64,000 nt of DNA. Source: an uncultured Gammaproteobacteria bacterium (GTDB lineage Bacteria; Patescibacteriota; Microgenomatia; Levybacterales; UBA12049). The notes below the pieces were generated by a model. It saw nothing but the letters and a program-made list of their open reading frames with translations. It was not told the origin of the DNA and searched no databases. Position numbers and translations under genes: made by a program. The stretch spans positions 3,191 through 67,190 of the forward strand of contig CAZCYO010000004.1 of assembly GCA_964503265.1 (NCBI GenBank). The letters are read 5' to 3'. Below, piece after piece: positions 6,165 through 62,993 of this stretch (its first letter is position 1; every line of letters begins with the position of its first letter).

Positions 6165-6213
6165 GGAACTATTCTAACACGAAGTTCATTTGAAAAAGAC
6201 GAAGTATCACATA

Positions 6214-21067: not shown

Positions 21068-21108
21068 GAGTTTTTAGTTAGGAGTTAGAAAATAGAAAAT
21101 AGTATTCA

Positions 21109-21685: not shown

Positions 21686-21756
21686 AAGATAGAAGTTGGA
21701 AGATAGCAAAAAATATTTTTTACTAAAACCTATCTTTTAACTCCTAACTAGTAATT

Positions 21757-26067: not shown

Positions 26068-26226
26068 AAGTATTTGATAGTATACTAAAAAATCACTATA
26101 ATTACAACACAATTGAGTAATACATAACTCAAAATGCAAAATTCAAAAATACAAGTTAAAATGTAAAAGTTACTTTTTATTTTTTAGTTGTGCTTTTGAA
26201 TTACCATTTTTGCCTTTTTACTTTTT

Positions 26227-35149: not shown

Positions 35150-35211
35150 TAACACATACGACCGCTGGCACTCGCTAGCGTTCGCACTCTTCCGTGCTAT
35201 GTCATCCCTAA

Positions 35212-42093: not shown

Positions 42094-42399
42094 CCCTTTT
42101 GTCTGAAGAACCTTTTAGCCTCAAATAAACGCATCAATAACATCCTATAGCTTGATCTTGGGCTCGCTTTATGCTACACTTTTACGACGATTTAGAGTAA
42201 CTCTATTTCTTTTTTTGCATATTTACCCTCCTACGCTTATAGCTACGAAAGGGCAAGTATGTATATCACCCATAACCGAAAAGTAATGAGGTTCACCCCT
42301 CATAGCTTTAACCCAATTGAATCGAGTCTAGCGAAGTGGGGCACATTTACAATATAGTGTGATAATTAGCGAAGACTGCTAAAAGAGAAGACAACCAGT

Positions 42400-42460
42400 T
42401 GTCATCCTGAACTTGATTCAGGATCCAGTCTAATAGTTTCCTGCCTTCGCAGGAATGACA
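42400..42460. repeat. Inverted pair of TGTCAT-headed hairpin repeats (BIME-like dimer)
   Basis: Forward copy TGTCATCC-tga-acttgat-tca-GGAT (42400-42424). Reverse copy ttcctgc-cttc-gcaggaa-tgaca (42438-42460). 13 nt separate them. Confidence 0.7.
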
Positions 42461-42592
42461 GTTTATCTTTTCCTTTGGCAGTCTTCATATGGTGAGACCT
42501 CTGTCGTAGCACATCGTATGTGCAGCAGAGATCCTCTCACCGGGCAACAGTGAAGACTTGTTGAACATACTTCCAAATAAAAGGAGCATCCG

Positions 42593-43006
42593 ATGGCCAC
42601 ACAACTCGTGCCAAGTGCATTCCATGCCACCTCTCCTGAACCAGCGAACGTCGCACCTGAGACATTTCAGGCGATCATGACTCTAGCTGTCGCTGAAATC
42701 CAGCATGGGCTGGCACGCCTGCACATGCCCGAACAAGACATCAAGCGCGTCTCGGCGGTAGTTAATCGCGGTTTGGTTGGCAGCATTCTTGCTGCTCTGG
42801 AATTCCCCTACTCAAGTCCGGGAAGGAACCTCACGCTTACACCCAAGCGGGTGGAAGCAGTGAGGGCCGCCATCACCCATGAAGTCAGGCGACTGATTGA
42901 CACGGATGATGAAATCAACAACGCAATGGTCTCGACAGGGACCGTAGTCGCGATCGTCCGTGCGATTGGCCTCTTCCCGGTTCACACCGACTCAACAGAC
43001 CAGTAA
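42593..43006 (+). CDS. Hypothetical protein (high-GC gene)
   Basis: About 58% GC. A strong Shine-Dalgarno (aaaggag) sits 7 nt upstream of the ATG. 137 aa, helical, Ala/Val-rich. Confidence 0.5.
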   Translation: MATQLVPSAFHATSPEPANVAPETFQAIMTLAVAEIQHGLARLHMPEQDIKRVSAVVNRGLVGSILAALEFPYSSPGRNLTLTPKRVEAVRAAITHEVRRLIDTDDEINNAMVSTGTVVAIVRAIGLFPVHTDSTDQ

Positions 43007-43327
43007 TAGAGCTACTTAGGCCATTCATTCCTGCGTTCGTCGGCAGGTGAGTGGTCGCTCCAGTTTCTCGTCTGGGAGGAATTGCCCTCTTCCCGGGCTT
43101 CTCTATCACACTATTTGCACAGTGCAAAAATTACCTAACGCCGTTTGGCTTACAGTAACGATTCTTTTTTCGAACCCTTCAATTGCGAAGACTACCCGAA
43201 AAAATGTCCGAGCTGTTTCCCCCAACCGGCGTTTTTTCTTGGAAAAAAAGAGTTGCTAAGAAATTGTAGCGTTAAAATAAGAGTGTATTTTGACTCTTTA
43301 TAGTAAAAAAGATACAGTTAATACTAT

Positions 43328-44212
43328 ATGGAATCGCTAGGTGCACCACCTCCAGACAGAAAGGAACCACTCCTAACAGACAGACCAGAACTACCACTTG
43401 CATATGGACATCCTGAGACGATAACAACTATGGATCATGTCGATGCATGGTTAGAAGGGCTTGCACGTTATGCTGCCAATGGTGAAAATGCCCGTTATAG
43501 CATAAGAGAGGTTGTTACTAATGATGCTTTTGATCCAGATAAAGCTTTAAAAAAATATCAAGAGGAGCTTCATTTTCTGCCGAAATCTCTCGCTCAAGAA
43601 GGTCTTACACAATTTGCGGAGGAAATTACTGAAACATTCGATCCAAAAACGTCACTTTTTTACTTTCATCCCAAAAGTATTAGTTCGTACTTCTTTCATA
43701 AAAACCTCATAGCGCTAAATCCCAAGCTAGCTACATATGGAAGAGCAGTAGATAGTTATTCGGCGTTAAGGCTAACGACCAAAAATGAATTTGGTTCAGA
43801 TGAGTTAAAAGATGCAAAAGCATTTATTTACGTGGATGATTGGATCTTGTCAGCAGAACAAATGGGAATTTTTTTATCAACTGATGTGGATGAAAAATTC
43901 CATACATTCCATCTAGCAGTAAGTGCACAAGGGCAGGATTTTCTTAAGAAAACATCTGGTCATCTGTTCCCACGCTATCTCAATACGATGCCATCTAAAG
44001 TTGGTTTTTTTCCTGAAGTCTCTGTGTATGGGTTTCATAAAATTCCTGATGTACTTCCTGATTTTTATACAAAATCTAAATGGGCAGATTTTTATTCAAT
44101 TTTTGGGAAAGGAAAGGATGGATTTAATATTCGAAAAAACCAACGGCTTTTCGATCATGACGCAGTATTTATAAATGAAAAAGATGACCCAGATAACCCT
44201 CAAAAGAAGTGA
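43328..44212 (+). CDS. Hypothetical protein
   Basis: 294-aa ORF with protein-like composition. No motif recognised. Confidence 0.4.
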   Translation: MESLGAPPPDRKEPLLTDRPELPLAYGHPETITTMDHVDAWLEGLARYAANGENARYSIREVVTNDAFDPDKALKKYQEELHFLPKSLAQEGLTQFAEEITETFDPKTSLFYFHPKSISSYFFHKNLIALNPKLATYGRAVDSYSALRLTTKNEFGSDELKDAKAFIYVDDWILSAEQMGIFLSTDVDEKFHTFHLAVSAQGQDFLKKTSGHLFPRYLNTMPSKVGFFPEVSVYGFHKIPDVLPDFYTKSKWADFYSIFGKGKDGFNIRKNQRLFDHDAVFINEKDDPDNPQKK

Positions 44213-44278
44213 ATCACGGAATATGTGTTTGGTATACTGAAACTCTCCATAGAAAAGATAGAATAACTGCTAATTCAC

Positions 44279-45814
44279 TTGACTTTTGCCTCAATTTCGC
44301 GTATTATGGGTCAATCATTTAGGAAACTGCCTCATACTTCCTCAATAAGAATAATTCTGCCCAGAATTTGCATGCAAAAACGTCTTTCTCACTATCGTGA
44401 TACTGTTACTACGCAGTCTCCAGTAATTTATCGCCGAGTTGTCGCGGATATTCGTCGTCGTCCTCTGTTTAATTTCGGGATCGCACTCATCGTTCTTTTT
44501 TTAATCTTACTTGCGAATTCTATACTTACGAAACCTGCAACAGAAGTGAAAAAAACACTCGCTCCTAAACCAGTTAAAACATATAGTATCGGCACAGCAC
44601 CAAAAGTAACGCTACAGGGAAAAGTCGAAAAATCGAACATCATTAAAATCATGGCGCAGACTGCAGGCGTCGTTAACGCAGTAAATGTGACAGAGGGAGA
44701 CAGTGTCACAAAAGGCCAAACACTCATCAACTTAGCCAGTAACTATCAAGGAGACTCAGCACCAGCTGTCCAAGCATCAATTGCTCAGACCAGTTATAAC
44801 AATACTGTCGCTACTTACACTACCCAAAAAGACTTACTAACAAAACAGCGTGACATCGCAAATGCAAGTTCAGATAACACCGAAGCACTTCGAAAAATCT
44901 CTGTTGAATCACGAGACTCAACACAGAGACTAATTGACGACACTCAGACGAATATCGATGGCCTAACAGCAACTATTAACCAGCTCGCTTCAAGTAATAA
45001 CCCGGCAGATCAGGCACAAGTCACAAGTGCAAAGCAGCTCCGCTCACAACTCAATGCCAGTATCACCCAGCTTCAATCTGGTGTTAACCAACTGAATTAC
45101 ACCACGAATACGAATAACCCACCAACACAGCTTGCAAATCTCCAGAAAGATATCACCCTTAAAGGACTTGATCTGCAGGAAAAAGCGTTAGAGTTAGGAA
45201 AAGAAGTCGCACGACTCCAAGCTAGTCTCGCGTGGATCGGTGCATCTGTCATGACACCAGCTACTCCAGTTGAGGGGAAAGTTGACCGTGTGTATGTAAC
45301 GGTCGGCCAAACAGTCACACCAGGAACAGTGCTTGCAACAATCGTCGGCGTCGAAGCAGATCCAACCATCGTTGTAAATCTTCCAGGTGAACTCGCTGCA
45401 ACTGTTTCACGAATTGAACCATCAGTCATTCATTTGGGTACTAAAACATACGAAACAACACCACGATATGTTTCATCTGAAGCAGTCGATGGCACACAAA
45501 ACGTCGCTCTCTTCTACCTCCCACCACAGTACACATCTGCTGTGACAGCTGATGGATTTGTGAGTGTCGATCTTCCTGTCGGAATGGCGAATACGAGTTC
45601 AACCATCCCGTTCGTTCCACTTGATGCTGTCTATCAAACAGCGAACAATGCGTATGTATATGTCGCTAAAAACGGTAAAGCTGAAAGTAAAACAGTCACA
45701 CTTGGAACAGTGTTTGGTGAATTTACCCAAATCGTTTCAGGACTAAATAGTGGTGATCAGGTTATTCTTAATCGAAATGTAATCGCTGGAGATAAAATAT
45801 CAGTGACAAAGTAA
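44279..45814 (+). CDS. Efflux transporter periplasmic adaptor subunit (HlyD/membrane-fusion protein family)
   Basis: TM anchor; biotin-lipoyl-like hairpin 'GKVEKSNIIKIMAQTAGVVNAVNVTEGDSVTKGQTLINL' and its C-terminal partner 'GKVDRVYVTVGQTVTPGTVLATI'; long coiled coil. It directly precedes the RND pump. The true start may be downstream (MQKRLSH...). Confidence 0.7.
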   Translation: MTFASISRIMGQSFRKLPHTSSIRIILPRICMQKRLSHYRDTVTTQSPVIYRRVVADIRRRPLFNFGIALIVLFLILLANSILTKPATEVKKTLAPKPVKTYSIGTAPKVTLQGKVEKSNIIKIMAQTAGVVNAVNVTEGDSVTKGQTLINLASNYQGDSAPAVQASIAQTSYNNTVATYTTQKDLLTKQRDIANASSDNTEALRKISVESRDSTQRLIDDTQTNIDGLTATINQLASSNNPADQAQVTSAKQLRSQLNASITQLQSGVNQLNYTTNTNNPPTQLANLQKDITLKGLDLQEKALELGKEVARLQASLAWIGASVMTPATPVEGKVDRVYVTVGQTVTPGTVLATIVGVEADPTIVVNLPGELAATVSRIEPSVIHLGTKTYETTPRYVSSEAVDGTQNVALFYLPPQYTSAVTADGFVSVDLPVGMANTSSTIPFVPLDAVYQTANNAYVYVAKNGKAESKTVTLGTVFGEFTQIVSGLNSGDQVILNRNVIAGDKISVTK

Positions 45815-45864
45815 AAAGGGAAAAGTCAAAACTCAAAAATACAATTCAAAAATAAAAACTGATT

Positions 45865-45889
45865 TGTCATCCTGAACTTGATTCAGGAT
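45865..45889 (+). repeat. TGTCAT-headed hairpin repeat, identical to the 42400 copy
   Basis: TGTCATCCTGAACTTGATTCAGGAT. It sits inside an intergenic motif that exists without it at 26128-26203. Confidence 0.7.
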
Positions 45890-45949
45890 CCATTCCTTAC
45901 CTGTGCTTTTGAATTTTAACTTTTCACATTTAAATTAAAAAATGAACAT

Positions 45950-48900
45950 ATGGAAAACGAAACATCTTATCTAGAGCGCTTACGGTTTGACCCGAAACTT
46001 AACAATTCGTTCATCGCAAACTATTTATTTAATCCTCGCTTAGCATTATTATTTATTTTTGCGATTATCGGAATTGGGATCTATAGTTTTATAAATCTCC
46101 CACGAGTCCTCAATCCTGATATTAAAATCCCTATCGTTATCGTCTCGACTGTTCTTCCTGGAGCAGGTCCAGCAGACGTTGAATCACTTGTTACCATTCC
46201 AATTGAAGACGGGGTGAGTAGTGTTCAGAAAGTAAAAAAAGTTACCTCAACATCTCGCGACTCTGTTTCAGTCGTTCAAATGGAATTTGAATCAGGCGTC
46301 GACCCAGATAAAGCCCGTTCTGATACACAGGCAGCAGTCGATAGTGTGAATAATTTACCAAGTGATGCACTCGCTCCAAAAGTTATCAAACTTGATTTCA
46401 CCAACTCCCCTATCTGGACATTTGCACTGGGAACATCCAACGACACTGGCAGTCTGATGCGCTACGCACGTCAACTTCGCGATAAAATAAAAGATTTAAG
46501 TAGTATTGATTCTGTACAAATTAGTGGACTTGAAGAACAAGAAATCCAAGTTATTATCAAGCCAACTACCGTCACCACATATGGTGTTAATCCACAACAA
46601 ATTGCAGGCAGTATCGCAACAGCACTCAAATCTTTCCCAGCCGGAACCATCTCGACGAGTACCACGACCTTTTCACTGAGTATCGATCAAGCTGCAACAT
46701 CAGTATCAGATCTGCGAAATCTTCAGGTATCACTTGGTGGCGTGATCGTTCCCCTCTCACAAATCGCAGATATTTACACGCACCCAAAACCAGACCAAAA
46801 CCCATCCCTTCTGGCAAGCAAGTCACAAACCGCCAAACAAGTCGTGACCTTTAGTGTATATAAAACTTCAGGAGTTAATATCGGTAAAGCATATGAAGAC
46901 ACAAAAAAACTCATTGATGAAGAACCGGGAATTATCTCAAACCAATTTCATGTCTACTCAGAAGTTAACTCAGCTGAGGAGATCGGTAAACAATTTAACG
47001 ATTTAACGCGTGACTTTTTAATCACCGTTATTCTCGTCTTTTTAGTACTCTTTATTTTCCTCGGTATCAAGCAAGCCATCATCGCCTCACTCGCGATTCC
47101 AGTTACGTTCTTTATCACCTTCTCAGTCATGTATATGACTGGACTTGCACTCAGTTTCATCTCGATGTTTTCACTGTTACTTGCACTTGGACTCCTCGTT
47201 GACGATACGATCGTGGTTGCTAGTGCGATGACATCCTATCATCGAAGTGGCAAATTCACACCAGCTGAGACTGGACTTCTCGTGTGGCGAGATTTCGTCG
47301 TCGCTATTTTCACAACGACCATTACGACAGTCTGGGCATTTTTACCACTCCTCTTATCCAGTGGCATTATCGGTGAATTTATTAAATCAATCCCGATCGT
47401 CGTCTCGACGACCCTTCTGGCGTCATTTGTCGTCGCGATGTTCGTGACACTTCCGTTCGTCGTCATGTTACTCAATGCGAAAATTCCATACCGTGTGACG
47501 ATGTTTTTACGTTATCTTTTGATCGGAATCTTAGTACTCGTACTGTTTTCAGTACTTCCAAAAGGTAATCTCTTTATCTTAGAATTGATCGCTATCGCAG
47601 TCGTCGGATTTATCGCATATCAAATTCGAGATATATTACGTGACCTAGTTCGCCCACAAGTTATGAACGTAAAACGATTTATAAGAGCTCGTTTTGCATC
47701 GCCTGAAAAAAAACGTTCAAATCGTGAATTTAGTGAGTATATAAATAATGGCATTATTCATTTTACTGTCATTAGTGATCGCTATCACAGAATTATTGAT
47801 ACTATTTTACGCTCTGCGCGCCTTCGACGCATGACCCTTGCGGTGGCGATTATTTTCTCACTTTTTTCATATATTTTACTTCCACTTGGATTTGTTAAAA
47901 ATGAATTCTTTCCGAAAAGTGATCAAGATTACGTCTACATGACACTCTCACTTCCAGCTGGAACGAATGTCGATATCGCGCGAGGATTTGCGACACGTAT
48001 CACAAACCAAGTAAGACAAATTGCTGCTGTTTCCTTCGTCACAGCAGATATCGGACAAGCATTTAGTAGTAGTGGTGGAACTGGCAGCAGTGGCGCAAAT
48101 GACATCCTGTTTACGCTCGTTTTGAATAAACCCCGAAACGTAACATCGACAGAACTTGGCCAAATTCTTCGTGACAAATACGGAGATCTTCCAGACGGAA
48201 AAGTAAGTATTACTGAATCAACCGGAGGTCCTCCAGCTGGCAGTGATTTACAGATTAGTATCTTTGGTGATGATTTAACGGTGCTTAGTAACTACGCTGA
48301 TCAGATTCAAACCTACTTAGGTAAACAAGCAGGAGTCGTTAACATCGATAAAAGCATCAAACCCGGCACATCGAAATTAGTTTTTACTCCAGATAAAACA
48401 GCAGTTGCAGATGCGGGTCTGACGACTGATACGATCGGATTTTGGATGAGAATTTTCGCGAGCGGCATTAGTACGAATTCAGTCAAATTCGTCAGCGAAG
48501 GATCAGAGAAACAAGACATCACCATTCGCATGGCAAATAATGCTCAGTCTCCTTCAGAAATCGGTTCATTAACCATCCCAGGCCAAGGACAAAACGGAGT
48601 AGCTCACACACTTTCTTCACTTGGCACACTCAGTCTGAAGAATAATCCGACACTCATTTCTCGTGAGGATGGAAAAAGAACAATTACCGTATCAGCTGGA
48701 GTTACTGCTGGATATTCTATTTCAGATCTTAATAAAAATCTTGAAATATATGCAGATTCACTGAATTTACCATCTGGATATGTATGGAAAACAGGTGGAG
48801 TTAATGAAGAGAATAATAATTCTGTACAGTCAATCTTAGCAGCCATGTTACTCTCATTCTTACTGATTATTGTAACTATGGTTATTCAGTTCTCATCATT

Positions 48901-49339
48901 TAGAAGAGCACTCATCGTAATGCTCGTAATCCCTCTCTCTATCTCCGGTGTGTTTATTATTTTTGCTCTCACAAACACCCCACTTTCCTTCCCAGCCTTG
49001 ATCGGAGTATTAGCACTATTTGGAATCGTAGTTAAAAACGCGATTTTAGTAGTCGATAAAATCATCCAGAATCAGGAGGCTGGACTTCCCTTTATCTCAT
49101 CTATTTCTGATGCTGCTGCAAGTCGACTTGAAGCGATCGCACTCACTTCAGTCGCTACCATCATCGGTCTTCTTCCGATCACGTTCTCAGATCCAGTCTG
49201 GCGCGGACTTGGCGGAGCGATCATCGCAGGACTAACATTCAGTGGAACCATCATGCTTTTCTTTATTCCGGTTGTTTATTATTATTGGTTTAAAAGTGAT
49301 GAAGAAAAAACAGTAACGAAAAGAAATTCTTCAAAATAA
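45950..49339 (+). CDS. RND superfamily efflux permease (AcrB/MMPL-like, 12 TM helices with large periplasmic loops)
   Basis: 1129 aa. Two repeated halves, each with a TM bundle; 'GLALSFISMFSLLLALGLLVDDTIVVA' and the second-half equivalent 'ALIGVLALFGIVVKNAILVVDKI' are typical RND TM4/TM10 regions. Confidence 0.85.
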   Translation: MENETSYLERLRFDPKLNNSFIANYLFNPRLALLFIFAIIGIGIYSFINLPRVLNPDIKIPIVIVSTVLPGAGPADVESLVTIPIEDGVSSVQKVKKVTSTSRDSVSVVQMEFESGVDPDKARSDTQAAVDSVNNLPSDALAPKVIKLDFTNSPIWTFALGTSNDTGSLMRYARQLRDKIKDLSSIDSVQISGLEEQEIQVIIKPTTVTTYGVNPQQIAGSIATALKSFPAGTISTSTTTFSLSIDQAATSVSDLRNLQVSLGGVIVPLSQIADIYTHPKPDQNPSLLASKSQTAKQVVTFSVYKTSGVNIGKAYEDTKKLIDEEPGIISNQFHVYSEVNSAEEIGKQFNDLTRDFLITVILVFLVLFIFLGIKQAIIASLAIPVTFFITFSVMYMTGLALSFISMFSLLLALGLLVDDTIVVASAMTSYHRSGKFTPAETGLLVWRDFVVAIFTTTITTVWAFLPLLLSSGIIGEFIKSIPIVVSTTLLASFVVAMFVTLPFVVMLLNAKIPYRVTMFLRYLLIGILVLVLFSVLPKGNLFILELIAIAVVGFIAYQIRDILRDLVRPQVMNVKRFIRARFASPEKKRSNREFSEYINNGIIHFTVISDRYHRIIDTILRSARLRRMTLAVAIIFSLFSYILLPLGFVKNEFFPKSDQDYVYMTLSLPAGTNVDIARGFATRITNQVRQIAAVSFVTADIGQAFSSSGGTGSSGANDILFTLVLNKPRNVTSTELGQILRDKYGDLPDGKVSITESTGGPPAGSDLQISIFGDDLTVLSNYADQIQTYLGKQAGVVNIDKSIKPGTSKLVFTPDKTAVADAGLTTDTIGFWMRIFASGISTNSVKFVSEGSEKQDITIRMANNAQSPSEIGSLTIPGQGQNGVAHTLSSLGTLSLKNNPTLISREDGKRTITVSAGVTAGYSISDLNKNLEIYADSLNLPSGYVWKTGGVNEENNNSVQSILAAMLLSFLLIIVTMVIQFSSFRRALIVMLVIPLSISGVFIIFALTNTPLSFPALIGVLALFGIVVKNAILVVDKIIQNQEAGLPFISSISDAAASRLEAIALTSVATIIGLLPITFSDPVWRGLGGAIIAGLTFSGTIMLFFIPVVYYYWFKSDEEKTVTKRNSSK

Positions 49340-49359
49340 TAACTCACCTTATTCTTCCT

Positions 49360-50010
49360 ATGGTTGAATCTCCTTTACAACACGCTGACCCTATTGACCG
49401 ACGAACCACTCGTGAATACTGGAATGGCCAACTCCCCGGCGATGTTCGACCAGCAGAAATGATTCAGATTGAAACAGATGTCCTTAAAGCAGCATGGAAT
49501 AAAACGAACGCGCATCTTCATCAGGCAAAAAATGGTGACTCTTTGTCTCGTTTTCCAGAAGGTAATCTATTTGATAGTAACCGATTCCCGAGAGAAACAG
49601 TGGTCAGTTTAGATATTGAATCACTACGTGAAAGTGAAGACTACAGACACGAGAAAAACGTAACATATAATCGGAATCGCTATTGGGGCGCGGTAGTCCC
49701 ACTATCACTTCGAAAATCAGATGCTCCACTCGTAGTTGTCTATTTTCCACAACGCCCGACTCTTCCCGATCCACATGGCTATATGACAGACGTTACACTT
49801 GATCAGGATCGTTTTCGAGTTCTCCCTTCTGAGCACAGAATTGGCGAGATCATGCATGAGGAAGGTGGATTTATTACCGGGGGTTCAATTCATCGAGTAC
49901 GAAGTATCGACGTTCACTCCCTTGGTGAACCACCAGTCAAAAAACGAAAGAGAGAACTGTGGACTCCCCGCATATTCGCTCCTCTTTGGAACCCACTTGG
50001 CAACACCTAA
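49360..50010 (+). CDS. Hypothetical protein (GC-elevated)
   Basis: 216 aa, about 48% GC. No motif recognised. Confidence 0.4.
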   Translation: MVESPLQHADPIDRRTTREYWNGQLPGDVRPAEMIQIETDVLKAAWNKTNAHLHQAKNGDSLSRFPEGNLFDSNRFPRETVVSLDIESLRESEDYRHEKNVTYNRNRYWGAVVPLSLRKSDAPLVVVYFPQRPTLPDPHGYMTDVTLDQDRFRVLPSEHRIGEIMHEEGGFITGGSIHRVRSIDVHSLGEPPVKKRKRELWTPRIFAPLWNPLGNT

Positions 50011-50231
50011 ATAGTATTTTTTTCCTTTTATACCAATCTAATCTCGTACTTTTAGCCTCATCTTATTTTCTTGACAGAGACTTAGACTGTATGTCTTAAT
50101 AATTACAGAGATAATTACGATTCGTAATTATTTATTTACCCTAAGAGCATTGCCTCTCGTATTTGAATTTATTTTCTCTATAACGAAGGTGATGCTCTTT
50201 TATTTTATCTCACATTTTTCTTGCTCGCTTA

Positions 50232-50738
50232 TTGCCCGCTTCTTGCATAACTCTTACGAATGCATGTCATACTTATATTATGGATCAAGTAACTCAAACA
50301 GAAGAAGTAACGACAGTACACAAATCTCATCCGTCAGAGGTCGTTCATACTACGACTAAAATTGTTCCTCCGGTAGTACGGACTGAACATCCCCAGCAAG
50401 TCTATGATAAAAAGAAAGTTATTTTTAGAACTTACCAGGTAGTCTGGTATATTTTAGCCGTGATCGAAATCTTACTTGGCTTTAGGATGACACTTCAGGC
50501 ACTCGGAGCCAATCCGTATAGTGGATTTACTAGTCTTATTTATATTCTCAGTAATCCCTTTGCTCTTCCTTTCAAAGGCATTCTCCAAACCTATGTCTCA
50601 GGGAGTTCTGTATTTGAGTGGTCGACCATCGTCGCAGTTATCGTCTACGCCGTCATCGCCTTTGGCATCGTCCACCTACTCCAACTCGTTAAACCCGTCA
50701 CTCCAGATGAAGTAGTAGGATCCGTCGACAACCCCTAA
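50232..50738 (+). CDS. YggT family membrane protein (putative), possibly starting at the internal Met (MDQVTQ...)
   Basis: The C-terminal 100 aa have two TM helices with a YggT-like pattern (YILAVIEILLGFRMTLQALGANPYSGFTSLIYILSNPFALPF). Confidence 0.45.
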   Translation: MPASCITLTNACHTYIMDQVTQTEEVTTVHKSHPSEVVHTTTKIVPPVVRTEHPQQVYDKKKVIFRTYQVVWYILAVIEILLGFRMTLQALGANPYSGFTSLIYILSNPFALPFKGILQTYVSGSSVFEWSTIVAVIVYAVIAFGIVHLLQLVKPVTPDEVVGSVDNP

Positions 50739-50759
50739 AATAACTTCTTTAAATCTCCT

Positions 50760-51006
50760 CTTTTTCGCAGCTAAATCGTCCGCGTGAACTTTGCGTTAAA
50801 AAAATTGCTGTAATGAGCGTTAAAAAACAGAAAGGCGAAGCCCTATACAAGTAAAGCTGAGTCCGGTGTTTTAGCGAATGAAAGCAATTTTTTAGCAAAG
50901 TGGAACCTAGGACGAGAGCTTTGGTTCTTTGTCGGCACAAAGAACAGAGTAAAAGAATAATAATAGGAATTATCTAATAGATTCTCGATCAAGCCGAGAA
51001 TGACAA
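50760..51006 (+). repeat. Dispersed structured repeat, copy 1 (about 247 nt), ending in a reverse-orientation TGTCAT hairpin
   Basis: Homologous to 62630-62993. Shared 5' block gcagctaaatcgtccg(c/t)gtgaac..tgcgttaaaaaaat...gagcgttaaa, an internal hairpin gttctttg-tcggca-caaagaac, and a 3' hairpin attctcg-atcaagc-cgagaat-gaca. Confidence 0.75.
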
Positions 51007-51029
51007 AACATAATTACCAAACAAAAAAA

Positions 51030-51056
51030 CGCCCGGAACTTCCAGGCGTTTTTTAC
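51030..51056. terminator. Bidirectional rho-independent terminator
   Basis: aaacaaaaaaa, then acgcccgg-aact-tccaggcgt, then tttttt. It serves the minus-strand gene ending at 51077 and any plus-strand transcript. Confidence 0.55.
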
Positions 51057-51076
51057 TATCTAACTCTAAGAACCAC

Positions 51077-51622
51077 TTACTGAGCAGGTGTAGGCGTCAC
51101 ACCCCACTTACCCATATGATTCCCCATTCTTCCTCTCATTCCCATACCAAACCCTGGCATGATAACTGAGGCATCAATTCCCTGTTCGCTCGCCCAAGCT
51201 TTCAGGTCTTTTTGTATATTCTCCATGTTCGTTCGTCGTTGTTCTGGCGTTTGGGTATCAGTTACTGGATACTTCGCGTGAAGTGCAGCTAGTTCTGCGA
51301 TAATCGCAGTTTCCTGTGCTGCAGTTATTTTCTTTTCACTAACGAGCTTATCGAGTCGTACTTTTTCACGATCTTCCATCATTTGCGTAGTCATCGTTGG
51401 ACGTGCTGACGCTTTATGATTTTCTCGATAGTCTTTCACTACTGATTGCACTTGATCATGATTAAGCCCGAATTTCTGTTCAATTGCTTGAATCATACCC
51501 TGGAAAAATCCTGAGTGAGTAGTCGACGTAGTTCCCTGTGCGAATGCTGATGGAACCATAACGATAGAACTCGTTAACACTGCGATAGTCATTACTCCCG
51601 TAGCAATTTTTTGTCTATTCAT
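51077..51622 (-). CDS. Secreted hypothetical protein
   Basis: Signal peptide MNRQKIATGVMTIAVLTSSIVMVPSAFA; 181 aa, helical; Gly/Met-rich C-terminus. Confidence 0.5.
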   Translation of the reverse strand: MNRQKIATGVMTIAVLTSSIVMVPSAFAQGTTSTTHSGFFQGMIQAIEQKFGLNHDQVQSVVKDYRENHKASARPTMTTQMMEDREKVRLDKLVSEKKITAAQETAIIAELAALHAKYPVTDTQTPEQRRTNMENIQKDLKAWASEQGIDASVIMPGFGMGMRGRMGNHMGKWGVTPTPAQ

Positions 51623-52100
51623 ATTTATTTAACACCTCCTCTCATCCCGTGAGTAAAATTAAAAATAGTATTGTCCCATGGAATCTTTGTGATTCCAGGA
51701 TCTTCGGCTTGTTTAAGCCTCGAGATGCCGCATTTCTTCAGAAATGTGGCCCCTTTCAAGTCACGAGCAGTTTACATTACTCGATATTCCTTTCCACACT
51801 ATACTGCCCCATACTTAAAGACCGCTGAAGACGAGCATATACCCACCAGCTGATCTGGCTAAACTAGCTTCAAAATAGACGTTTCAGTGACGCAATTATC
51901 GGTGGAGTTCCTGCAAAAATTAGTACATACCGTACATAGTAACCATTAAATAACTATAAGAATCTAGTAAGAATCGCTCAATAAGTGCTGAGTTCACTGG
52001 TATTCTTTGTTTATATTTGTTATAGTTTTCATTCACTTGCCCAGTTCCTTGTTCTTTCTCCGTTTGGTGAATTTCCCTGGGTTCTATATAGCAGTTATTT

Positions 52101-53690
52101 ATGTTTGATAAAAATCCTATAATTCCATTTGATGAAGAGACGACGAAAAGAGAAGGCCAAGGCTTTCACCACAACGGCATAAAATATATTCATCATACTG
52201 ATTTAGATCACAGTGAAAGTGCCTACTATCGTTTTTCAACCTACCAGATTTATTTCTTAATCGGTGCGACGGTGCTTTTTGTGTTAGCACTCCTTATAAA
52301 TTGGCACGCGACACTCGTCGTTCTGATCTCAGCGCTGACGTTCTTATATTTCGCCGATTTACTCTTTAATTTCTTTTTAATTATCAGAAGTTTTTCTAAA
52401 CCCCCAGAAATTGTGATCTCTAAAGAACGACTCGATGCTGTCACTGATGCAGAGCTTCCAATTTATACGATTCTCTGTCCACTTTATCGCGAGTGGCAGG
52501 TCGTCCCCCAGTTCGTCTCATCGATTAATAATCTTGATTATCCGAAAGATAAACTTGAGGTTATGCTCCTTCTTGAAGAAGATGATGCTGACACGATTAA
52601 AAAAATTAAAGAATATGATTTACCCGATTATATTCAGATCGTCGTCGTTCCAGATTCACTCCCGAAGACCAAACCTAAAGCGTTAAATTATGGATTAAAA
52701 TTAACTCACGGTGAATTCCTCGTGATTTATGATGCAGAAGATGTCCCTGAAAAAGAACAATTAAAAAAATCAGTTCTTGCGTTTCACCAGCTTGATGATC
52801 ATGTCATTTGTATCCAGGCGAAACTTAACTTCTATAATCCCCACCAGAATATCTTAACGAGAGTCTTTACTGCTGAATATTCACTCTGGTTTGATTTAGT
52901 CCTCACAGGTCTCCAGTCAATTAAAGCGCCAATCCCACTAGGTGGTACGTCAAATCATTTTCGAACCAAATATCTTTATGACTTAAAAGGCTGGGATTCA
53001 TTTAATGTAACCGAAGATTGTGATTTAGGGATGCGACTTGTTAAAAGAGGTTTTAAAACAGCAATCATTGACTCAACGACACACGAAGAAGCGAACAGTA
53101 ATTATCTCAATTGGTTTCGTCAGCGTACACGCTGGATTAAAGGGTATATGCAGACCTATTTCGTTCACATGAGAGATCCACGAGAATTCATGCAGAAATG
53201 GCGCGAACCACACGTTATCACCTTTCAACTCGTCGTTGGTGGGAAAATTCTCTCCATGCTGATTAATCCACTCATGTGGGTTATCACCATTTCCTACTTT
53301 GTTTTTCGTCCACAAATTGGGCACTTTATTGAATCGTTTTATTTAACCCCAATTTTCTATATGGGTATCTTCTCACTCACTGTCGGGAACTTTTTATATC
53401 TGTACTACTACGTCATCGGCTGTGCGAAACGCGACTACGATAACATCATTAAATACATGTTCTTAGTGCCACTCTACTGGATCGCGATGAGTGCGGCAGC
53501 ATGGGTCGCGATATATGAAGTGATTAAAAATCCACACTACTGGCCCAAAACCGTCCACGGACTTCACATCGATAATAAAAAAGCCATGACCCAAGCCGCG
53601 AAAGTAATTGGTCGAGAGTTAGTCGACTACCATCCAAAACACAAACCAATCAAGCCAACCGAAATCTTAATCACACCAAGTCACATGTAG
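52101..53690 (+). CDS. Family-2 processive glycosyltransferase (CesA/BcsA/NodC-like polysaccharide synthase) with flanking TM domains
   Basis: GT-A core with 'VIYDAEDVP' (DxD-type), 'TEDCDLG' and a 'QRTRWIKG' (QxxRW) processivity motif. TM helices lie both N- and C-terminal. Confidence 0.8.
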   Translation: MFDKNPIIPFDEETTKREGQGFHHNGIKYIHHTDLDHSESAYYRFSTYQIYFLIGATVLFVLALLINWHATLVVLISALTFLYFADLLFNFFLIIRSFSKPPEIVISKERLDAVTDAELPIYTILCPLYREWQVVPQFVSSINNLDYPKDKLEVMLLLEEDDADTIKKIKEYDLPDYIQIVVVPDSLPKTKPKALNYGLKLTHGEFLVIYDAEDVPEKEQLKKSVLAFHQLDDHVICIQAKLNFYNPHQNILTRVFTAEYSLWFDLVLTGLQSIKAPIPLGGTSNHFRTKYLYDLKGWDSFNVTEDCDLGMRLVKRGFKTAIIDSTTHEEANSNYLNWFRQRTRWIKGYMQTYFVHMRDPREFMQKWREPHVITFQLVVGGKILSMLINPLMWVITISYFVFRPQIGHFIESFYLTPIFYMGIFSLTVGNFLYLYYYVIGCAKRDYDNIIKYMFLVPLYWIAMSAAAWVAIYEVIKNPHYWPKTVHGLHIDNKKAMTQAAKVIGRELVDYHPKHKPIKPTEILITPSHM

Positions 53691-53697
53691 TGATTTG

Positions 53698-53872
53698 TGT
53701 CATCCGCCCAGCGGCGGAGCCAGAAAATACTGTCATTCCGGCTTGTCCGGAATCAAAGTAGAAGTGTCATTCCCTTGAAAAAGGGAATCTATTAGACACA
53801 TCCTTAATAAGGAATTATCCAATAGATCCTCGATCGAGCCGAGGATGACATGTACTTTGGGAGGGAATGACA
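53698..53872. repeat. Cluster of five TGTCAT-headed hairpin repeats (three forward, two reverse)
   Basis: Forward copies: 53698-53718 TGTCATCCGCC-cagc-GGCGGA; 53731-53753 TGTCATTCCGG-cttgt-CCGGAAT; 53765-53788 TGTCATTCCCTT-gaaa-AAGGGAAT. Reverse copies: 53826-53850 atcctcg-atcgagc-cgaggat-GACA, and a degenerate gggagggaATGACA at 53858-53872. Confidence 0.7.
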
Positions 53873-53887
53873 GATTAACGAAAACTT

Positions 53888-55141
53888 ATGAAAAAAGCAT
53901 ATACGTTTGCAAATAGCGGAACCGTTTTACTTGGAGCCATCATGGTGTCAAACATACTTAACTTCGCCTTTAGTGCGCTCATGGGAAGAATTCTCCCGCT
54001 TGAACAGTTCGGCATCTTAACAGTTATTAGTTCGTTTTACTATTTAATCAGCATTTTCTTAAATGCGCTGGGAAATACGGTTAATCATTGGGTGGCATTT
54101 TTATCAAACACTGAAGGAAAACATGCAGGTGACACATTCTTTATGGGACTGCAAAAATCACTTTTGTTCATTGCTGGCATTTCGACACTACTCTGGGTAC
54201 TCGCCAGTCCGGCACTCCAAAACTTCTTTCATTTACCAAGTCTCTATCCGATTATTCTGTTTGCCCCACTCGTCTTCGCAGCGCCATTTTTAGGAGGAAT
54301 AAAAGGATACCTCCAGGGATCATTTTTATTCTTCTTTGCTGGAATAACGATACTGACAGAAGTCCTGTCCAAGCTTTTTTTAACAGTGGTCTTACTATCA
54401 GGACATACCGATCTTATGTACATAACCATCCCTTTTTCAGTTTGTGTCTCAACTATCATCGGATATATATTCCTTAAAAAAAGCGCGCTTACTCTAACAG
54501 ATCACTCATATAAATTTCCCAGGTCTTTTTTCCTTTTCTCAACACTCAATGCGATTATTTCAACCACGTTTTTATCAGTAGATGTAGTTTTAGTGAAACA
54601 CTTTTTATCAGGCGCACAGGCTGGCCAATATGCGTTACTTGCGATCACTGGGAAAATGGTGTATTTCTTTGGTTCACTCGGTAATGCGCTTCTGGTCAGT
54701 TACATTAGTCGGGATGAAGCGAAGCATAAAAACGTCCAGAAACCATTCGTTATATTCGTCAGTGCGACAGCTGCACTCTCTGCTTTCATGTTTATCATTC
54801 TTGGACCACTAGGGTTTATCACTCTTCCCATTTTACTTGGCGAGAAAATTATTCCCCTTCTTCCCTACCTCACTAATTATATTCTCGCCATCGTTTTCCT
54901 AACCATCGCAAATGTCATTATCAGCTTCCACATCACACTACACAATTACATTTTCTCCGTCATCGCGATTGCAGCGACGCTTGGGATGATACTCGGGATT
55001 ATGTATCTCCATAACAGCATTACAGACATCGTAAATATTTTATTACTAGTAACCTTCATCAGTCTAGTAAGCTGCTTCGCCCTGCATTTCTTATATTCAT
55101 CCCAGAAAATCACACCAAAAAAGATTTATATGAGTGTGTAA
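53888..55141 (+). CDS. Oligosaccharide/polysaccharide flippase (Wzx-like, MOP superfamily)
   Basis: 417 aa with about 12 TM helices. The N-terminus is of the 'polysacc_synt' type (GTVLLGAIMVSNILNFAFSALMGRIL). Confidence 0.65.
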   Translation: MKKAYTFANSGTVLLGAIMVSNILNFAFSALMGRILPLEQFGILTVISSFYYLISIFLNALGNTVNHWVAFLSNTEGKHAGDTFFMGLQKSLLFIAGISTLLWVLASPALQNFFHLPSLYPIILFAPLVFAAPFLGGIKGYLQGSFLFFFAGITILTEVLSKLFLTVVLLSGHTDLMYITIPFSVCVSTIIGYIFLKKSALTLTDHSYKFPRSFFLFSTLNAIISTTFLSVDVVLVKHFLSGAQAGQYALLAITGKMVYFFGSLGNALLVSYISRDEAKHKNVQKPFVIFVSATAALSAFMFIILGPLGFITLPILLGEKIIPLLPYLTNYILAIVFLTIANVIISFHITLHNYIFSVIAIAATLGMILGIMYLHNSITDIVNILLLVTFISLVSCFALHFLYSSQKITPKKIYMSV

Positions 55142-55147
55142 CCAACT

Positions 55148-55241
55148 TGTCATCCTGAACTTGGATTCAGGATCCAGATAATTGTCATTCCTGCGAAGTC
55201 AGGAATCTATACAAAATGATTCCGGTCAAGCCGGAATGACA
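55148..55241. repeat. Cluster of three TGTCAT-headed hairpin repeats (two forward, one reverse)
   Basis: 55148-55173 TGTCATCCTGAA-cttgga-TTCAGGAT; 55183-55206 TGTCATTCCTG-cgaagt-CAGGAAT; 55219-55241 attccgg-tcaag-ccggaat-GACA. Confidence 0.7.
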
Positions 55242-55255
55242 GAACAAATAATACT

Positions 55256-56158
55256 ATGACTAACGAAAACAAACTATCAATCTCTATCTGTGTCCCAGCT
55301 TTTAATGAGGAAGCAAATATTCGAAATATTTTAGAAGGACTCTCCCATCAAAAACTTTTTCGCGTCCACATAAATAAAATTATTGTCGTATCTAGCGGTA
55401 GTACCGATAAGACTGCTGAAATCGTGGAGGAGTTTATGAAAACGAATCCTCGTCTATCGCTTATCAACGAAGAGAACCGAAATGGAAAAGCCGCCGCGAT
55501 AAATGAATTTTTATCAGTGGTCAGTGATCCAGTCGTCGTCATCCAAAGTAGCGACACGATACCAGTTGAAGATACGATAGAACTTTTATGTAGACCCTTT
55601 TTAGATGACGCGAACATCGGGATGACTGGTGGTGCCCCGATCCCACTGAATGACCCGAATACGTGTCTAGGATACATCGTACATTCATGGTGGTGGTTCC
55701 ACCGTAACATCCCACGATTTGGAGAGATAGTCGCATTCAGAAATAACATCGGGATGATCTCAGCGAAGACGGCGGTGGACGAAGCATATATCCAGGCGAA
55801 GATGATTCAGGGAGGATATAAAGTAGTTCACATCGACGAAGCGATCGTCCGAAATAAAGGAGCTGATAATTTAGGCGACCTCATTAAACAGCGCCGACGA
55901 ATTTTTAACGGCCACTCCCGTCTCTATCAATCAGAAAAAATAAAAATCGATAACATGACGAAATCCAGTCTCCATCTATTATTATTCAAATATAAAATGA
56001 AGAATTTAAAGGAAGCGACGTGGTTACTTTGTGGAATTGGAATAGAATTTTATGCTCGAATACTTGGGGCAATGGATATGTATCTCTCTAAAAAAAATCC
56101 AATCACCTGGGATATAGCAAAATCTACTAAAAAATTGAAGATGAAAGATGTATCATGA
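55256..56158 (+). CDS. Family-2 glycosyltransferase
   Basis: N-terminal 'ISICVPAFNEEANIRNILEGL' and a later 'VVIQSSDTIP' DxD-like region. GT-A fold. Confidence 0.75.
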   Translation: MTNENKLSISICVPAFNEEANIRNILEGLSHQKLFRVHINKIIVVSSGSTDKTAEIVEEFMKTNPRLSLINEENRNGKAAAINEFLSVVSDPVVVIQSSDTIPVEDTIELLCRPFLDDANIGMTGGAPIPLNDPNTCLGYIVHSWWWFHRNIPRFGEIVAFRNNIGMISAKTAVDEAYIQAKMIQGGYKVVHIDEAIVRNKGADNLGDLIKQRRRIFNGHSRLYQSEKIKIDNMTKSSLHLLLFKYKMKNLKEATWLLCGIGIEFYARILGAMDMYLSKKNPITWDIAKSTKKLKMKDVS

Positions 56159-57279
56159 TTGTCTATTTAAACTTTGCACCAATTGATTTTGTAGGAGGAG
56201 CTGAACTTTGGCTTCGAGGCATCTCAAAAGCCACAAGTAAACATGAAGAGACTTATGTTATTTCTGTTGCTTCCCAAATTGCAGATATCTATGGACAAAT
56301 TGTACTTAATAGAAAATTTAGTGAAAATAGAACACCCGAAAAAATGGATGAAGTGAAATTAATTAAACTAAATATTTTGAGTTTTATTCCCTTCAACAAA
56401 AAATTTTGGGAAGTCAGGAATATACTTAAGAAAGCACGTCTAATCTATATAAAACTTGAGCTTTTAGAATTACTAATCACAACTTATTTTATTGGGATAA
56501 GTTCACTCAATAAAGTTATCGGTGGTGTGCACTCACCTCTTCACTATACAACGAGTAAGTCTTTTTTTAGCAAACTACATAATCTCGTTTATTCTTCAGC
56601 TCTTTATGGATTTATTATTAGAAAACTAAATAAAGTACATGTGCTTAATAAAAAAGATTTATTGTATTTAATGAAGAAATATAATATTGAAAATATTATT
56701 CAAATGTACGATGGTGTCGATATGAAAAAAAATGAAAATTTAAAAACGAAAATAGATCATACTATTCTTAAAGTAATTATTGTCGGAGAATTATCATTAA
56801 GAAAAGGTACAGACATACTTATAAAAATAATTAAAAAATCTCCAAAGAACTTCTTCTTCACCATTATTGGTGATGGTCCTCTAAAAAAATCTGTTAAAAA
56901 GTTACCGAAAAAATATAACTATCATTATATTGGATATCTTCATGACAAAAAGAAATTAAATCAACTTTATAAAGAACATGATATATTATTATTCCCTTCT
57001 CGTGCAGAAACACAAGGACTCGTTATGCCCGAAGCGATGAATTTCGGACTTAAAATAGTGAACTCTGCAGAAGTTAATTTAGGAGCTCCTAAGTTTGCCG
57101 AGCTATCATCCAATACAGATGATCAAGAAGAGTATGTAAAATTACTAGATCAAGTATTTATAGAAAAAAAGTCACAACAGAAAATCAAAGAGAAAATTCA
57201 CGAGTATGCTTATAGAGAATTCTCTAACGATATCCTTCAGCCTAAATTTCTCTCTAAGATATTATCAATAAATAACTAA
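56155..57279 (+). CDS. GT-B fold glycosyltransferase (family 4/GT1-like)
   Basis: C-terminal 'LLFPSRAETQGLVMPEAMNFGLKIVNS' is the GT4 E-x7-E motif region. 4-nt overlap with the upstream gene. Confidence 0.75.
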   Translation: MIVYLNFAPIDFVGGAELWLRGISKATSKHEETYVISVASQIADIYGQIVLNRKFSENRTPEKMDEVKLIKLNILSFIPFNKKFWEVRNILKKARLIYIKLELLELLITTYFIGISSLNKVIGGVHSPLHYTTSKSFFSKLHNLVYSSALYGFIIRKLNKVHVLNKKDLLYLMKKYNIENIIQMYDGVDMKKNENLKTKIDHTILKVIIVGELSLRKGTDILIKIIKKSPKNFFFTIIGDGPLKKSVKKLPKKYNYHYIGYLHDKKKLNQLYKEHDILLFPSRAETQGLVMPEAMNFGLKIVNSAEVNLGAPKFAELSSNTDDQEEYVKLLDQVFIEKKSQQKIKEKIHEYAYREFSNDILQPKFLSKILSINN

Positions 57280-57280
57280 T

Positions 57281-58201
57281 ATGAAAAATAATATAGTTTC
57301 CGTTTCTGTAGTAATTGCTGCATATAATGCAGAAAAGAATATTAAGAGACTAACTGAATCAATCCTAACACAGAAACATAAATCTTATAAATTATCTGAA
57401 GTAATAGTTAACTCAGACAGAAGTACGGATAGTACCATCACGAAATTAAAAGAAATAAAGAATTCTAACCTCAAAATTTCTATTGCGAAAAAAAGATTGG
57501 GGTTTGCAGGAACACTGATAAAATTTATAAAATCAAATAATTCAGATATACTGATCCTCCTTAATGACGATGTAATCATTAAAGACAATTTGTTTTTAGA
57601 AAAAATTATTCAACCATTTATACACGAAAAAGATGTTGGACTCGTATGTGGCAATCCTACGGCAACTATAATTAAAAATTTCATATCAGAAGCTGTAAGG
57701 TCTGGATATTTAGCATACAAAAACATGGCAGATAATAATAACTCTGGAAATAATATTTTTACAGTTGATGGTAAGGCACTTTGTGTATCAAGAAAACTAG
57801 CAAAAACAATGACGTTTCCTGAAGAATATAGCATAATGGGAAATGTAGATAAATATATCTATTTTTTATGTATTAAAAATGGATTTAAATATCGGTACGT
57901 AAAAGAAGCCCAAATGCACTTTAAGATGCCAGATACAATGAAAGATTTTGTTAAATGGCAGACCAGAAATTATAAATCAAATAAGTATAAGGTAAAAGAA
58001 GCATGGGGCGATTTAGTGGAGAAAGAATATCAACATTCTAAAAACGATTTTAGAAACTATAAAATTATTGAATTTATAAAAAACCCTTTAGGAAGTTTAT
58101 TTATATTGATGCTTGGATTCTATTGCTCATATAAAGCAAAAATGGAACAAGATCAATTTGAAACTAAATGGGATTTAGTAGGAAGCACAAAAAATATATG
58201 A
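57281..58201 (+). CDS. Family-2 glycosyltransferase
   Basis: 'VSVVIAAYNAEKNIKRLTESIL' and 'ILLNDDVII' (DD motif). Confidence 0.75.
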   Translation: MKNNIVSVSVVIAAYNAEKNIKRLTESILTQKHKSYKLSEVIVNSDRSTDSTITKLKEIKNSNLKISIAKKRLGFAGTLIKFIKSNNSDILILLNDDVIIKDNLFLEKIIQPFIHEKDVGLVCGNPTATIIKNFISEAVRSGYLAYKNMADNNNSGNNIFTVDGKALCVSRKLAKTMTFPEEYSIMGNVDKYIYFLCIKNGFKYRYVKEAQMHFKMPDTMKDFVKWQTRNYKSNKYKVKEAWGDLVEKEYQHSKNDFRNYKIIEFIKNPLGSLFILMLGFYCSYKAKMEQDQFETKWDLVGSTKNI

Positions 58202-59787: not shown

Positions 59788-59788
59788 T

Positions 59789-62616: not shown

Positions 62617-62629
62617 GTATTTTCTTCTC

Positions 62630-62993
62630 CATAGTGATTTGCAGCTAAATCGTCCGTGTGAACAATGCGTTAAAAAAATCTTTTGGAGTGAGCGTTAAAC
62701 TGGAAGACTCCCTATTTTTTGTAATTGAAACAAAGAGCGTAAAGTTTTTGCGGAGTGAATGTTCAGGGGAAATCCGGCGAACTGCCGAAAGGGAGCGGAC
62801 GAGCGAAGCGACGGAGCTCGCTTGCGAATAAAGTGAGACAAGGGTGGAACGGACAATTCCCCGATAAATGAACGTAGCAAAAATAGCACGACTTTCACTT
62901 ACAAAAGAGTTTTGGTACTTTTTCGGCAAAAAGTACAGAATAAAAGCATAATAGAACTTATCTAATAGATCCTCAATCTAGTTGAGGATGACA
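62630..62993 (+). repeat. Dispersed structured repeat, copy 2 (about 364 nt, with a roughly 110-nt GC-richer insert)
   Basis: Homologous ends with copy 1. Internal hairpin gtactttt-tcggca-aaaagtac and 3' hairpin atcctcaa-tctag-ttgaggat-gaca; both show compensatory changes relative to copy 1. Confidence 0.75.

Follow-up and report, generated by a model that had tools for sequence, protein, structure and literature searches.

Twelve short, oriented hairpin repeats occupy spacers between genes in a 64,000-nt stretch of contig CAZCYO010000004.1 (assembly GCA_964503265.1; the window, below, means the whole of this stretch). They probably belong to the CGTC/TGTC-tagged superfamily of repetitive extragenic palindromic (REP) elements, which we equate with the NTS and Ssn-related motif (SRM) repeats of the Ssn nucleases. 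The host is a member of the candidate phyla radiation (CPR), as its topoisomerase I is closest to proteins of Levybacteria/Microgenomates and other Patescibacteria, and its AcrB-like protein agrees. An earlier interpretation of the window, made from its letters without database searches (the sequence-only reading), had already called the genome CPR-like and had compared the repeats to REPs and bacterial interspersed mosaic elements (BIMEs). This comparison holds: the repeats are oriented hairpins, strictly intergenic, often arranged as inverted pairs, and under selection for pairing. The same reading ascribed their mobilization to a REP-associated tyrosine transposase (RAYT) or IS200-like enzyme, an interpretation that is to be replaced by one based on Ssn.

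Each unit comprises an unpaired TGTC head, a 6–8 bp stem that opens with an A-T and a T-A pair (ATCC... or ATTCC...), a loop of 4–7 nt (CTTGA, GAAA, GAAG, GCTTGAT and others), a 3′ arm closing in ...GGAT or ...GGAAT, and a tail that begins with C (CCAG or CTATTAGA(TAA)). We scanned for [CT]GTCAT with a perfect stem of at least 6 bp immediately after it and found 12 clean units, with heads at 42400+, 42460-, 45865+, 51005-, 53698+, 53731+, 53765+, 53850-, 55148+, 55183+, 55241- and 62993-, along with one degenerate unit. In 300 first-order Markov simulations with the composition of the window, the mean was 0.37 units and the maximum three, and the observed count therefore goes well beyond what composition predicts. 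All 12 units start with TGTC, and the stem opens at the next base or one base later. A C directly follows the palindrome in 10 of the 12, the exceptions being 42460- (A, then C) and 53698+ (G, then CC). Stems reach 8 bp in five units, and a CCA tail is present in three. Although 88.9% of the window is coding by a simple tiling of open reading frames (ORFs), none of the 12 units overlaps an ORF. They are spread over six separate spacers and so do not derive from a single duplicated segment, and six of them form three heads-out doublets of the type TGTCAT...ATGACA (42400-42460, 53765-53850 and 55183-55241). The units are as follows, written as head/5′ arm/loop/3′ arm/tail.

42400 to 42428, plus strand: TGTC/ATCCTGAA/CTTGA/TTCAGGAT/CCAG, left half of the heads-out doublet 42400-42460.
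42432 to 42460, minus strand: TGTCA/TTCCTGC/GAAG/GCAGGAA/ACTATTAG, right half of the doublet 42400-42460.
45865 to 45893, plus strand: single unit with the same head, stem and loop as the unit at 42400 (repeat family D17, 97%), between HlyD-like and AcrB-like genes.
50965 to 51005, minus strand: TGTC/ATTCTCG/GCTTGAT/CGAGAAT/CTATTAGATAATTCCT, with an extended tail, at the end of the long repeat 50764-51006 (family D1).
53698 to 53723, plus strand: TGTCA/TCCGCC/CAGC/GGCGGA/GCCAG, 8 nt after the stop codon of a glycosyltransferase gene.
53731 to 53757, plus strand: TGTC/ATTCCGG/CTTGT/CCGGAAT/CAAAG.
53765 to 53792, plus strand: TGTC/ATTCCCTT/GAAA/AAGGGAAT/CTATTAGA, left half of the heads-out doublet 53765-53850.
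53810 to 53850, minus strand: TGTC/ATCCTCG/GCTCGAT/CGAGGAT/CTATTGGATAATTCCT, right half of the doublet 53765-53850 (family D1).
53851 to 53872, minus strand: degenerate unit TGTCATTCCCTCCCAAAGTACA, consisting of the head and the 5′ half of the stem only.
55148 to 55177, plus strand: TGTC/ATCCTGAA/CTTGGA/TTCAGGAT/CCAGAT, 7 nt after the stop codon of a 417-aa gene.
55183 to 55210, plus strand: TGTC/ATTCCTG/CGAAGT/CAGGAAT/CTATAC, left half of the heads-out doublet 55183-55241.
55215 to 55241, minus strand: TGTC/ATTCCGG/CTTGA/CCGGAAT/CATTTTG, right half of that doublet, ending 15 nt before the next start codon.
62953 to 62993, minus strand: TGTC/ATCCTCAA/CTAGA/TTGAGGAT/CTATTAGATAAGTTCT, at the end of the long repeat 62638-62993 (families D1 and D3).

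The copies listed by the sequence-only reading lie at, or within a few bases of, the positions it gave. The five that it placed in 53698-53872 comprise four clean units and the degenerate one, whose head region forms an inverted repeat with the head at 53765. Its head-only copy at 35200-35208 was not counted, as TGTCATYCC is expected about once per window by chance and this occurrence lies on an ordinary terminator; in total this simple head has seven matches in the window, with 1.0 expected.

The long repeat that ends in a unit at 51005 and again at 62993 is non-coding. Its two copies (50764-51006 and 62638-62993) span about 240–350 nt and are about 72% identical with indels. Both open with TTYGCAGCTAAATCGTCCGYGTGAAC..TGCGTTAAAAAAAT and end in a TGTC unit with an extended tail, and their fold z-scores are about -2.6 on either strand. 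One Logan contig corresponds to window positions 51697-62918, and both of its ends are near the long repeats.

The sequence-only reading had noticed that the stems vary in a way that preserves base pairs, and this is borne out. Nine different stem sequences occur among the 12 units, and every stem is perfectly paired. A MAFFT alignment of all 12 was not structurally consistent, and the count of pairs was therefore confined to five units of identical geometry. In these, three of the seven pairs change on both sides while 100% of cells remain paired, a degree of covariation reached by one of 500 shuffles, and pairing is lost when the partner columns are slid. Every unit, folded as single-stranded DNA, yields a hairpin in which the GTC of the head stays unpaired (z-scores from -3 to -5.5); the doublet 55183-55241 can alternatively fold as one long hairpin.

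Stable folding, and the location of most units between co-directional genes 7–50 nt past a stop codon, would also suit elements that act in RNA, as terminators, attenuators or 3′-end stabilizers of polycistronic glycosyltransferase and efflux transcripts. The likeness to a family of DNA repeats would then be incidental, and REPs of other families do have such secondary roles (PMC3733652). We nevertheless consider this explanation unlikely. No T-run follows any unit in the window, and the units are therefore not intrinsic terminators. Both orientations occur within single spacers, such that in any one transcript half of the units would show the complement of the head and tail, and an unpaired GTC head and C-tail have no rationale at the RNA level. 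Rfam yielded no family at the units or the long repeats, either at the gathering threshold or at E <= 1, and SsnA, the enzyme discussed below, binds no RNA (PMC11893778). An action in RNA could still be a secondary effect of the units.

The units have two close published counterparts. In the CGTC-tagged REPs surveyed by Di Nocera et al. (BMC Genomics 2013, PMC3733652), the tag is often TGTC, stems are AT-first and 8–9 bp long, loops have 4–5 nt, the tail is CCA, and inverted dimers predominate. These repeats were reported from five phyla, are grouped into families CGTC-1 to -4, and "apparently lack a dedicated transposase". The second counterpart is the NTS of Neisseria meningitidis, a 28-nt hairpin repeat (CGTCATTCCCGCGMAVGCGGGAATCYRG, also given as CGTCATTCCCGCG..GCGGGAATC) that contains dRS3 as its inner part and is bound by SsnA, a 94-aa GIY-YIG protein of family cd10448 (Chenal et al., Nat Commun 2025, PMC11893778). 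Binding is restricted to single-stranded DNA and to one strand, and SsnA cuts a few nucleotides upstream of the repeat. Cutting is governed by the three bases before the palindrome and binding by the C after it, and enzymes with Y6A, Y17A or E64A show no cleavage. An SRM is found near 71% of SsnA homologues and on both sides in 42% (PMC11893778). The link between nuclease and repeat, which the present analysis reached independently, is thus already published and is no novelty here, although the 2025 paper does not cite the 2013 classification of REPs and its main text makes no mention of Patescibacteria.

Membership of the window units in the combined CGTC-REP/SRM family is argued by the GTC head of all 12 and by the C after the palindrome in 10 of them. 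With NTS/SRM repeats they share the HGTC head, the AT-first stem, the C after the palindrome and a clustered, intergenic placement. They differ in that the heads are always TGTC, the stems are shorter and richer in A and T, the tails are often CTAT... and not CCAG, the host is a CPR bacterium, and there is no ssn gene within 64 kb. The likeness to CGTC-tagged REPs extends to the TGTC tag, AT as the first two stem pairs, a short unpaired 3′ tail, inverted dimers and the lack of a transposase; stems and loops are 8–9 bp and 4–5 nt there, whereas here they are 6–8 bp and 4–7 nt, in a new host phylum. The dRS3 and intergenic mosaic elements of Neisseria have the core palindrome ATTCC..GGAAT in common with the units and are likewise clustered in mosaic spacers, but the definition of dRS3, ATTCCC-N8-GGGAAT, matches no window unit.

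Classical REP/BIME elements, including REPINs, resemble the window units as well. They combine an unpaired tag with inverted doublets and a single small gene flanked by repeats, and they leave no target duplication. In principle, the units could be REPINs mobilized in trans by a RAYT (TnpA_REP, an IS200/IS605-like Y1 transposase) encoded elsewhere in the genome. An oriented head with a variable palindrome, inverted pairs, clustering and strictly intergenic placement are all in keeping with this, as is the absence of target-site duplications, which is also a feature of Y1 transposases. We consider this origin very improbable. The tag is (T/C)GTC and not GTAG or GTGG, and in their TGTC tag, AT-first stem and C-tail the units agree with the CGTC-tagged REPs, whose partner is Ssn, a GIY-YIG nuclease and not an HUH Y1 transposase. 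The survey of CGTC-tagged REPs includes no tyrosine-transposase gene flanked by such units (PMC3733652). No Y1 transposase appeared among the recurrent neighbours of units in 120 clustered loci, where no search was aimed at Y1 transposases specifically, and no window ORF that was scanned matched Y1_Tnp in Pfam or NCBIfam. The window is indeed free of transposases, as the sequence-only reading had stated: none was found in a Pfam scan of about 40 ORFs or in the gene tables.

The partner of such units was instead apparent in other genomes. When ORFs from 120 loci selected by the repeat pattern were clustered, a family of about 95 aa was the only small one found adjoining units, and the larger ORF clusters that were inspected were ABC-type transporters. 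The small family was present in 9 to 11 of the 120 loci, typically with a plus-strand unit upstream and a minus-strand unit downstream, and all nine of the proteins examined contained the Pfam GIY-YIG domain (PF01541). Residues Y6, Y17, R27, H31 and E64 are invariant in the alignment of the family. Mutation of Y6, Y17 or E64 abolishes cleavage by SsnA (PMC11893778), and we assign the proteins to the same nuclease family. The N. gonorrhoeae homologue was matched at E = 6e-29. As an independent test, we chose 80 metagenome loci by protein similarity alone and scored units within 160 nt of the gene. A unit in the correct orientation preceded the gene in 46 of 77 loci and followed it in 45 of 77, compared with five and 13 in the wrong orientation, and 32 of 74 loci had one on both sides. 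With one stem mismatch allowed, units flanked the gene on both sides in 51 of 88 loci. The spacing within these cassettes is regular, with about 20–30 nt before the GIY-YIG domain and 10–20 nt after it, and the left and right stems are the same in 23 of 51 cassettes (3.7 expected, with a maximum of 10 in 2000 permutations). These counts and the invariance of Y6, Y17 and E64 bear out the published results on Ssn (PMC11893778).

The nuclease family is very large: almost all of the candidates scored (7998 of 8000) reached E <= 1e-10, and their sole annotation is "GIY-YIG nuclease family protein". The nuclease is present in Neisseria gonorrhoeae, Sinorhizobium meliloti, Azospirillum lipoferum and Novosphingobium aromaticivorans, which PMC3733652 lists as carriers of CGTC-tagged REPs. 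An AlphaFold2 model (pLDDT 89.5) has its closest structural matches in the UPF0213 proteins (1zg2 and 1ywl) and in Slx1 nuclease domains, with UvrC ranking behind them, in agreement with a 2006 classification in which these bacterial UPF0213-type proteins are minimal Slx1-like nucleases. Libraries of defence systems and phage proteins returned nothing specific for the nuclease. Protein identity was slightly higher within repeat loop classes, at 0.627 versus 0.592 (permutation p ~0.001), a difference that shared host ancestry could explain. Cassettes of nuclease and repeats also occur in CPR genomes, namely at loci L018 (Patescibacteria) and L049 (Magasanikbacteria) and around the Patescibacteria protein P0343. 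The P0343 gene is preceded by a heads-out doublet, a minus-strand unit overlaps its 3′ end, and one of its units has a CTATAA tail that recalls the CTAT tails of the window.

Many Ssn-family proteins are encoded on contigs of only 400–1100 bp (L213, L216 and L217 among the loci). At least one of these, the Logan contig L213, has its first base within a unit, just past the initial T of the head (gtcattcccgcgaaagcggg...), as would be expected if these repeats break short-read assemblies. At the gltA-lpxB spacer of Sinorhizobium meliloti (L209), a direct duplication of about 150–190 nt brackets the nuclease gene; the duplication itself holds one minus-strand and one plus-strand unit and may be a footprint of cassette arrival.

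The distribution of the family was assessed, with one genome per species, from the commonest window variant, TGTCATCCTGAA-N4-8-TTCAGGATCC, which has 22 fixed bases. This variant occurs exactly in at least 120 stretches from at least 15 phyla, as judged by record titles, where about 0.4 occurrences would be expected in 596 Gb. At least 35 of the loci are from CPR bacteria, among them Saccharibacteria, Roizmanbacteria, Magasanikbacteria, Nomurabacteria, Peribacteria, Moranbacteria, Uhrbacteria, Curtissbacteria, Microgenomates, Kazan and Absconditabacterales, and the suggestion that such elements might be new to CPR-like genomes therefore does not stand. Other carriers belong to the Alpha- and Gammaproteobacteria, Bacteroidota, Melainabacteria, Margulisbacteria, Dependentiae, Spirochaetes, Chloroflexota, Actinomycetota and further phyla, and include cultured isolates of Sphingomonas, Novosphingobium, Treponema bryantii, Shewanella and Mucilaginibacter. 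Beyond the roughly 27 nt of the variant, the flanks are unrelated between stretches. The family is thus common in CPR/Patescibacteria and at least a dozen further phyla, which have one 27-nt variant exactly in common.

Over all collected loci we counted 498 units. GTC is preceded by T in 360 and by C in 138, a CCA tail is present in 304, and loops are mostly 4–5 nt long. Neighbouring units are oriented heads-out in 106 cases, heads-in in 36 and in tandem in 36, with a median gap of 26.5 nt. At several loci (L022 at about 5000-6850, L074, L066 and L023), two or three tandem copies of a 5′ half-unit (TGTCATCCTGAAC and about 8 nt more), spaced with a period of about 20 nt, immediately precede a complete unit.

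The sequence-only reading had suggested the insertion of a mobile unit, and gain or loss of units is indeed seen between relatives. The closest available relative (GCA_964443315.1, contig CAYUCP010000011.1; locus L205), with 82% identity in AcrB and about 75% DNA identity across genes, is syntenic with the window from 38 to 49 kb and carries no units at all. At the 42.4-kb spacer, 71 nt of the window (42392-42462, which comprise the 61-bp doublet and a few further bases) are matched by 7 nt in the relative; the flanks align, and 33 nt on the right are identical. The doublet 42400-42460 is thus a clean filled-versus-empty site at which units were gained or lost. A second relative (L204, with a TopA 82% identical) covers only a unit-free part of the window, contains no units itself and has no bearing on this question. 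The other clean comparison comes from Azospirillum lipoferum 4B, which has a doublet, the nuclease gene and another doublet between sufB and sufC. This cassette is missing, with short spacers in its place, from A. ramasamyi (flanks 97.7% identical), A. oryzae, strain B510 and A. argentinense. These two empty-versus-filled comparisons support unit gain or loss, whereas the 2025 paper, which likened the NTS-ssnA-NTS layout to an insertion sequence, advanced mobility as a hypothesis only (PMC11893778).

A further site had been offered as an insertion, namely the spacer of the 45865 unit in comparison with a unit-free motif at 26128. The likeness is real and the unit is present only in the former, but the likeness is loose. 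The motif (26128-26223 and 45835-45936) is AT-rich and reads ...CAAAAYTCAAAAATACAA... then ...TGTGCTTTTGAATT...; its two halves are partly inverted repeats of each other, and two unrelated genes lie downstream of the copies, for which it could act as promoter or operator. In the relative L205, a run of N (9899-10000) falls exactly at the HlyD-AcrB spacer, where the window has the 45865 unit.

One possibility, which we rate as somewhat doubtful, is that the heads-out doublets and unit-ssn-unit cassettes of CPR bacteria are actively mobile, with Ssn serving as the transposase or with host ligation substituting. The precise presence and absence of the 61-bp doublet between relatives, the Azospirillum insertion, the matched left and right stems and the exact sharing of one variant by at least 15 phyla are compatible with such mobility and do not prove it. 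Matches that might represent target-site duplications were as frequent as permutation predicts (105 doublets and 70 cassettes). A comparison of near-identical cassettes with different flanks across 88 loci was uninformative, as only one pair reached at least 85% identity. If true, Ssn-driven mobility would constitute a new class of single-strand "cut and paste" element without target duplication.

Several observations weigh against assigning the window units to the Ssn-associated family. The published SRM pattern, HGTCWYN(0-2)YYVSBRHN(0-5)WNVSBRGN(0-2)RNCYNB, matches none of the 12, and neither does the NTS. The stems are shorter (6–8 bp) and AT-richer than in typical members, and nine different stems coexist. 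Since the Neisseria enzyme is inactive once the stem sequence is altered with pairing kept (PMC11893778), one nuclease may not serve all of these units. The window encodes no Ssn/GIY-YIG protein, and a search of it for nuclease remnants, the long repeats included, gave nothing below E = 0.8. The absence of the doublet from the relative could be a deletion there, and to our knowledge mobility catalysed by Ssn has never been demonstrated. Elsewhere (loci L004-L203) the published pattern likewise recovers only 17 of the 306 units at pattern-selected genome loci and, of the 180 that surround nuclease genes, only 92. AT-rich variants such as ATCCTGAA/TTCAGGAT flank nuclease genes at L038, L046, L075 and L055. 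Built from GC-rich stems, the published pattern misses these AT-rich variants, and surveys that use it therefore undercount the family. By their anatomy, the window units appear to be divergent members of it.

The lack of a nuclease gene in the window also raises the possibility that the units are orphan relics or passive targets, introduced by recombination or transformation or used as landing sites by other elements, as dRS3 is by IS110-type and phage recombinases in Neisseria, with no cognate nuclease acting on them in this genome. Homologues of ssnA are absent from 19% of SRM-rich genomes, and dRS3 is a known target of a phage recombinase (PMC11893778); one of the window units is degenerate, and the stems are heterogeneous. 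Perfect stems and intact heads in all 12 clean units, however, argue for ongoing selection or a recent origin, and no insertion sequence or integrase is inserted at any unit of the window. We therefore think it improbable that the units are orphans. Under the preferred Ssn-based interpretation, this genome probably encodes or once encoded, outside the window, an Ssn homologue that acts on these AT-rich units, and the units would have spread through single-stranded intermediates without target duplication.

Family D4, a set of short intergenic repeats of the type TAGAAGATAGAAGTTAGAAG (16322-16359, 21079-21102 and 21683-21706), has no relation to the hairpins. A 721-aa ORF at 32984-35149, in which an SPFH/Band 7 domain is the only one found, lies in a stretch with a G+C content of 46–52%, compared with about 40% elsewhere in the window, and this stretch may be horizontally acquired DNA. 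The contig of which the window is part measures 236.9 kb, and the window is also covered, at 100% identity, by short Logan contigs of run SRR12487046.

By analogy with Neisseria, we consider it most likely that a unit would fold whenever its DNA is exposed as a single strand in the course of replication, repair or uptake. An Ssn homologue encoded outside the window would then bind the folded unit and nick upstream of the head. Depending on context, nicking might limit the recombination of incoming DNA or promote the copying and loss of units. The nuclease gene is usually located between two inverted, heads-out units, in a cassette resembling an insertion sequence, and the short heads-out doublets and scattered single units look like non-autonomous relatives of it. 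A gene for DprA is present in the window. The Ssn/NTS system of Neisseria lowers transformation by NTS-containing DNA (PMC11893778), and cutting of incoming single-stranded DNA at the units may similarly modulate natural transformation here.

What the analysis adds is modestly new, and consists of the CPR hosts, the AT-rich variants that the published pattern misses, and the evidence from empty and filled sites. The spacers described here should be annotated as Ssn-related, CGTC-tagged REP units, in preference to RAYT-type REPs or uncharacterized RNAs. As Ssn and NTS modulate transformation in Neisseria and some CPR bacteria have been genetically manipulated, these units may be relevant to the way in which such small genomes deal with incoming DNA.

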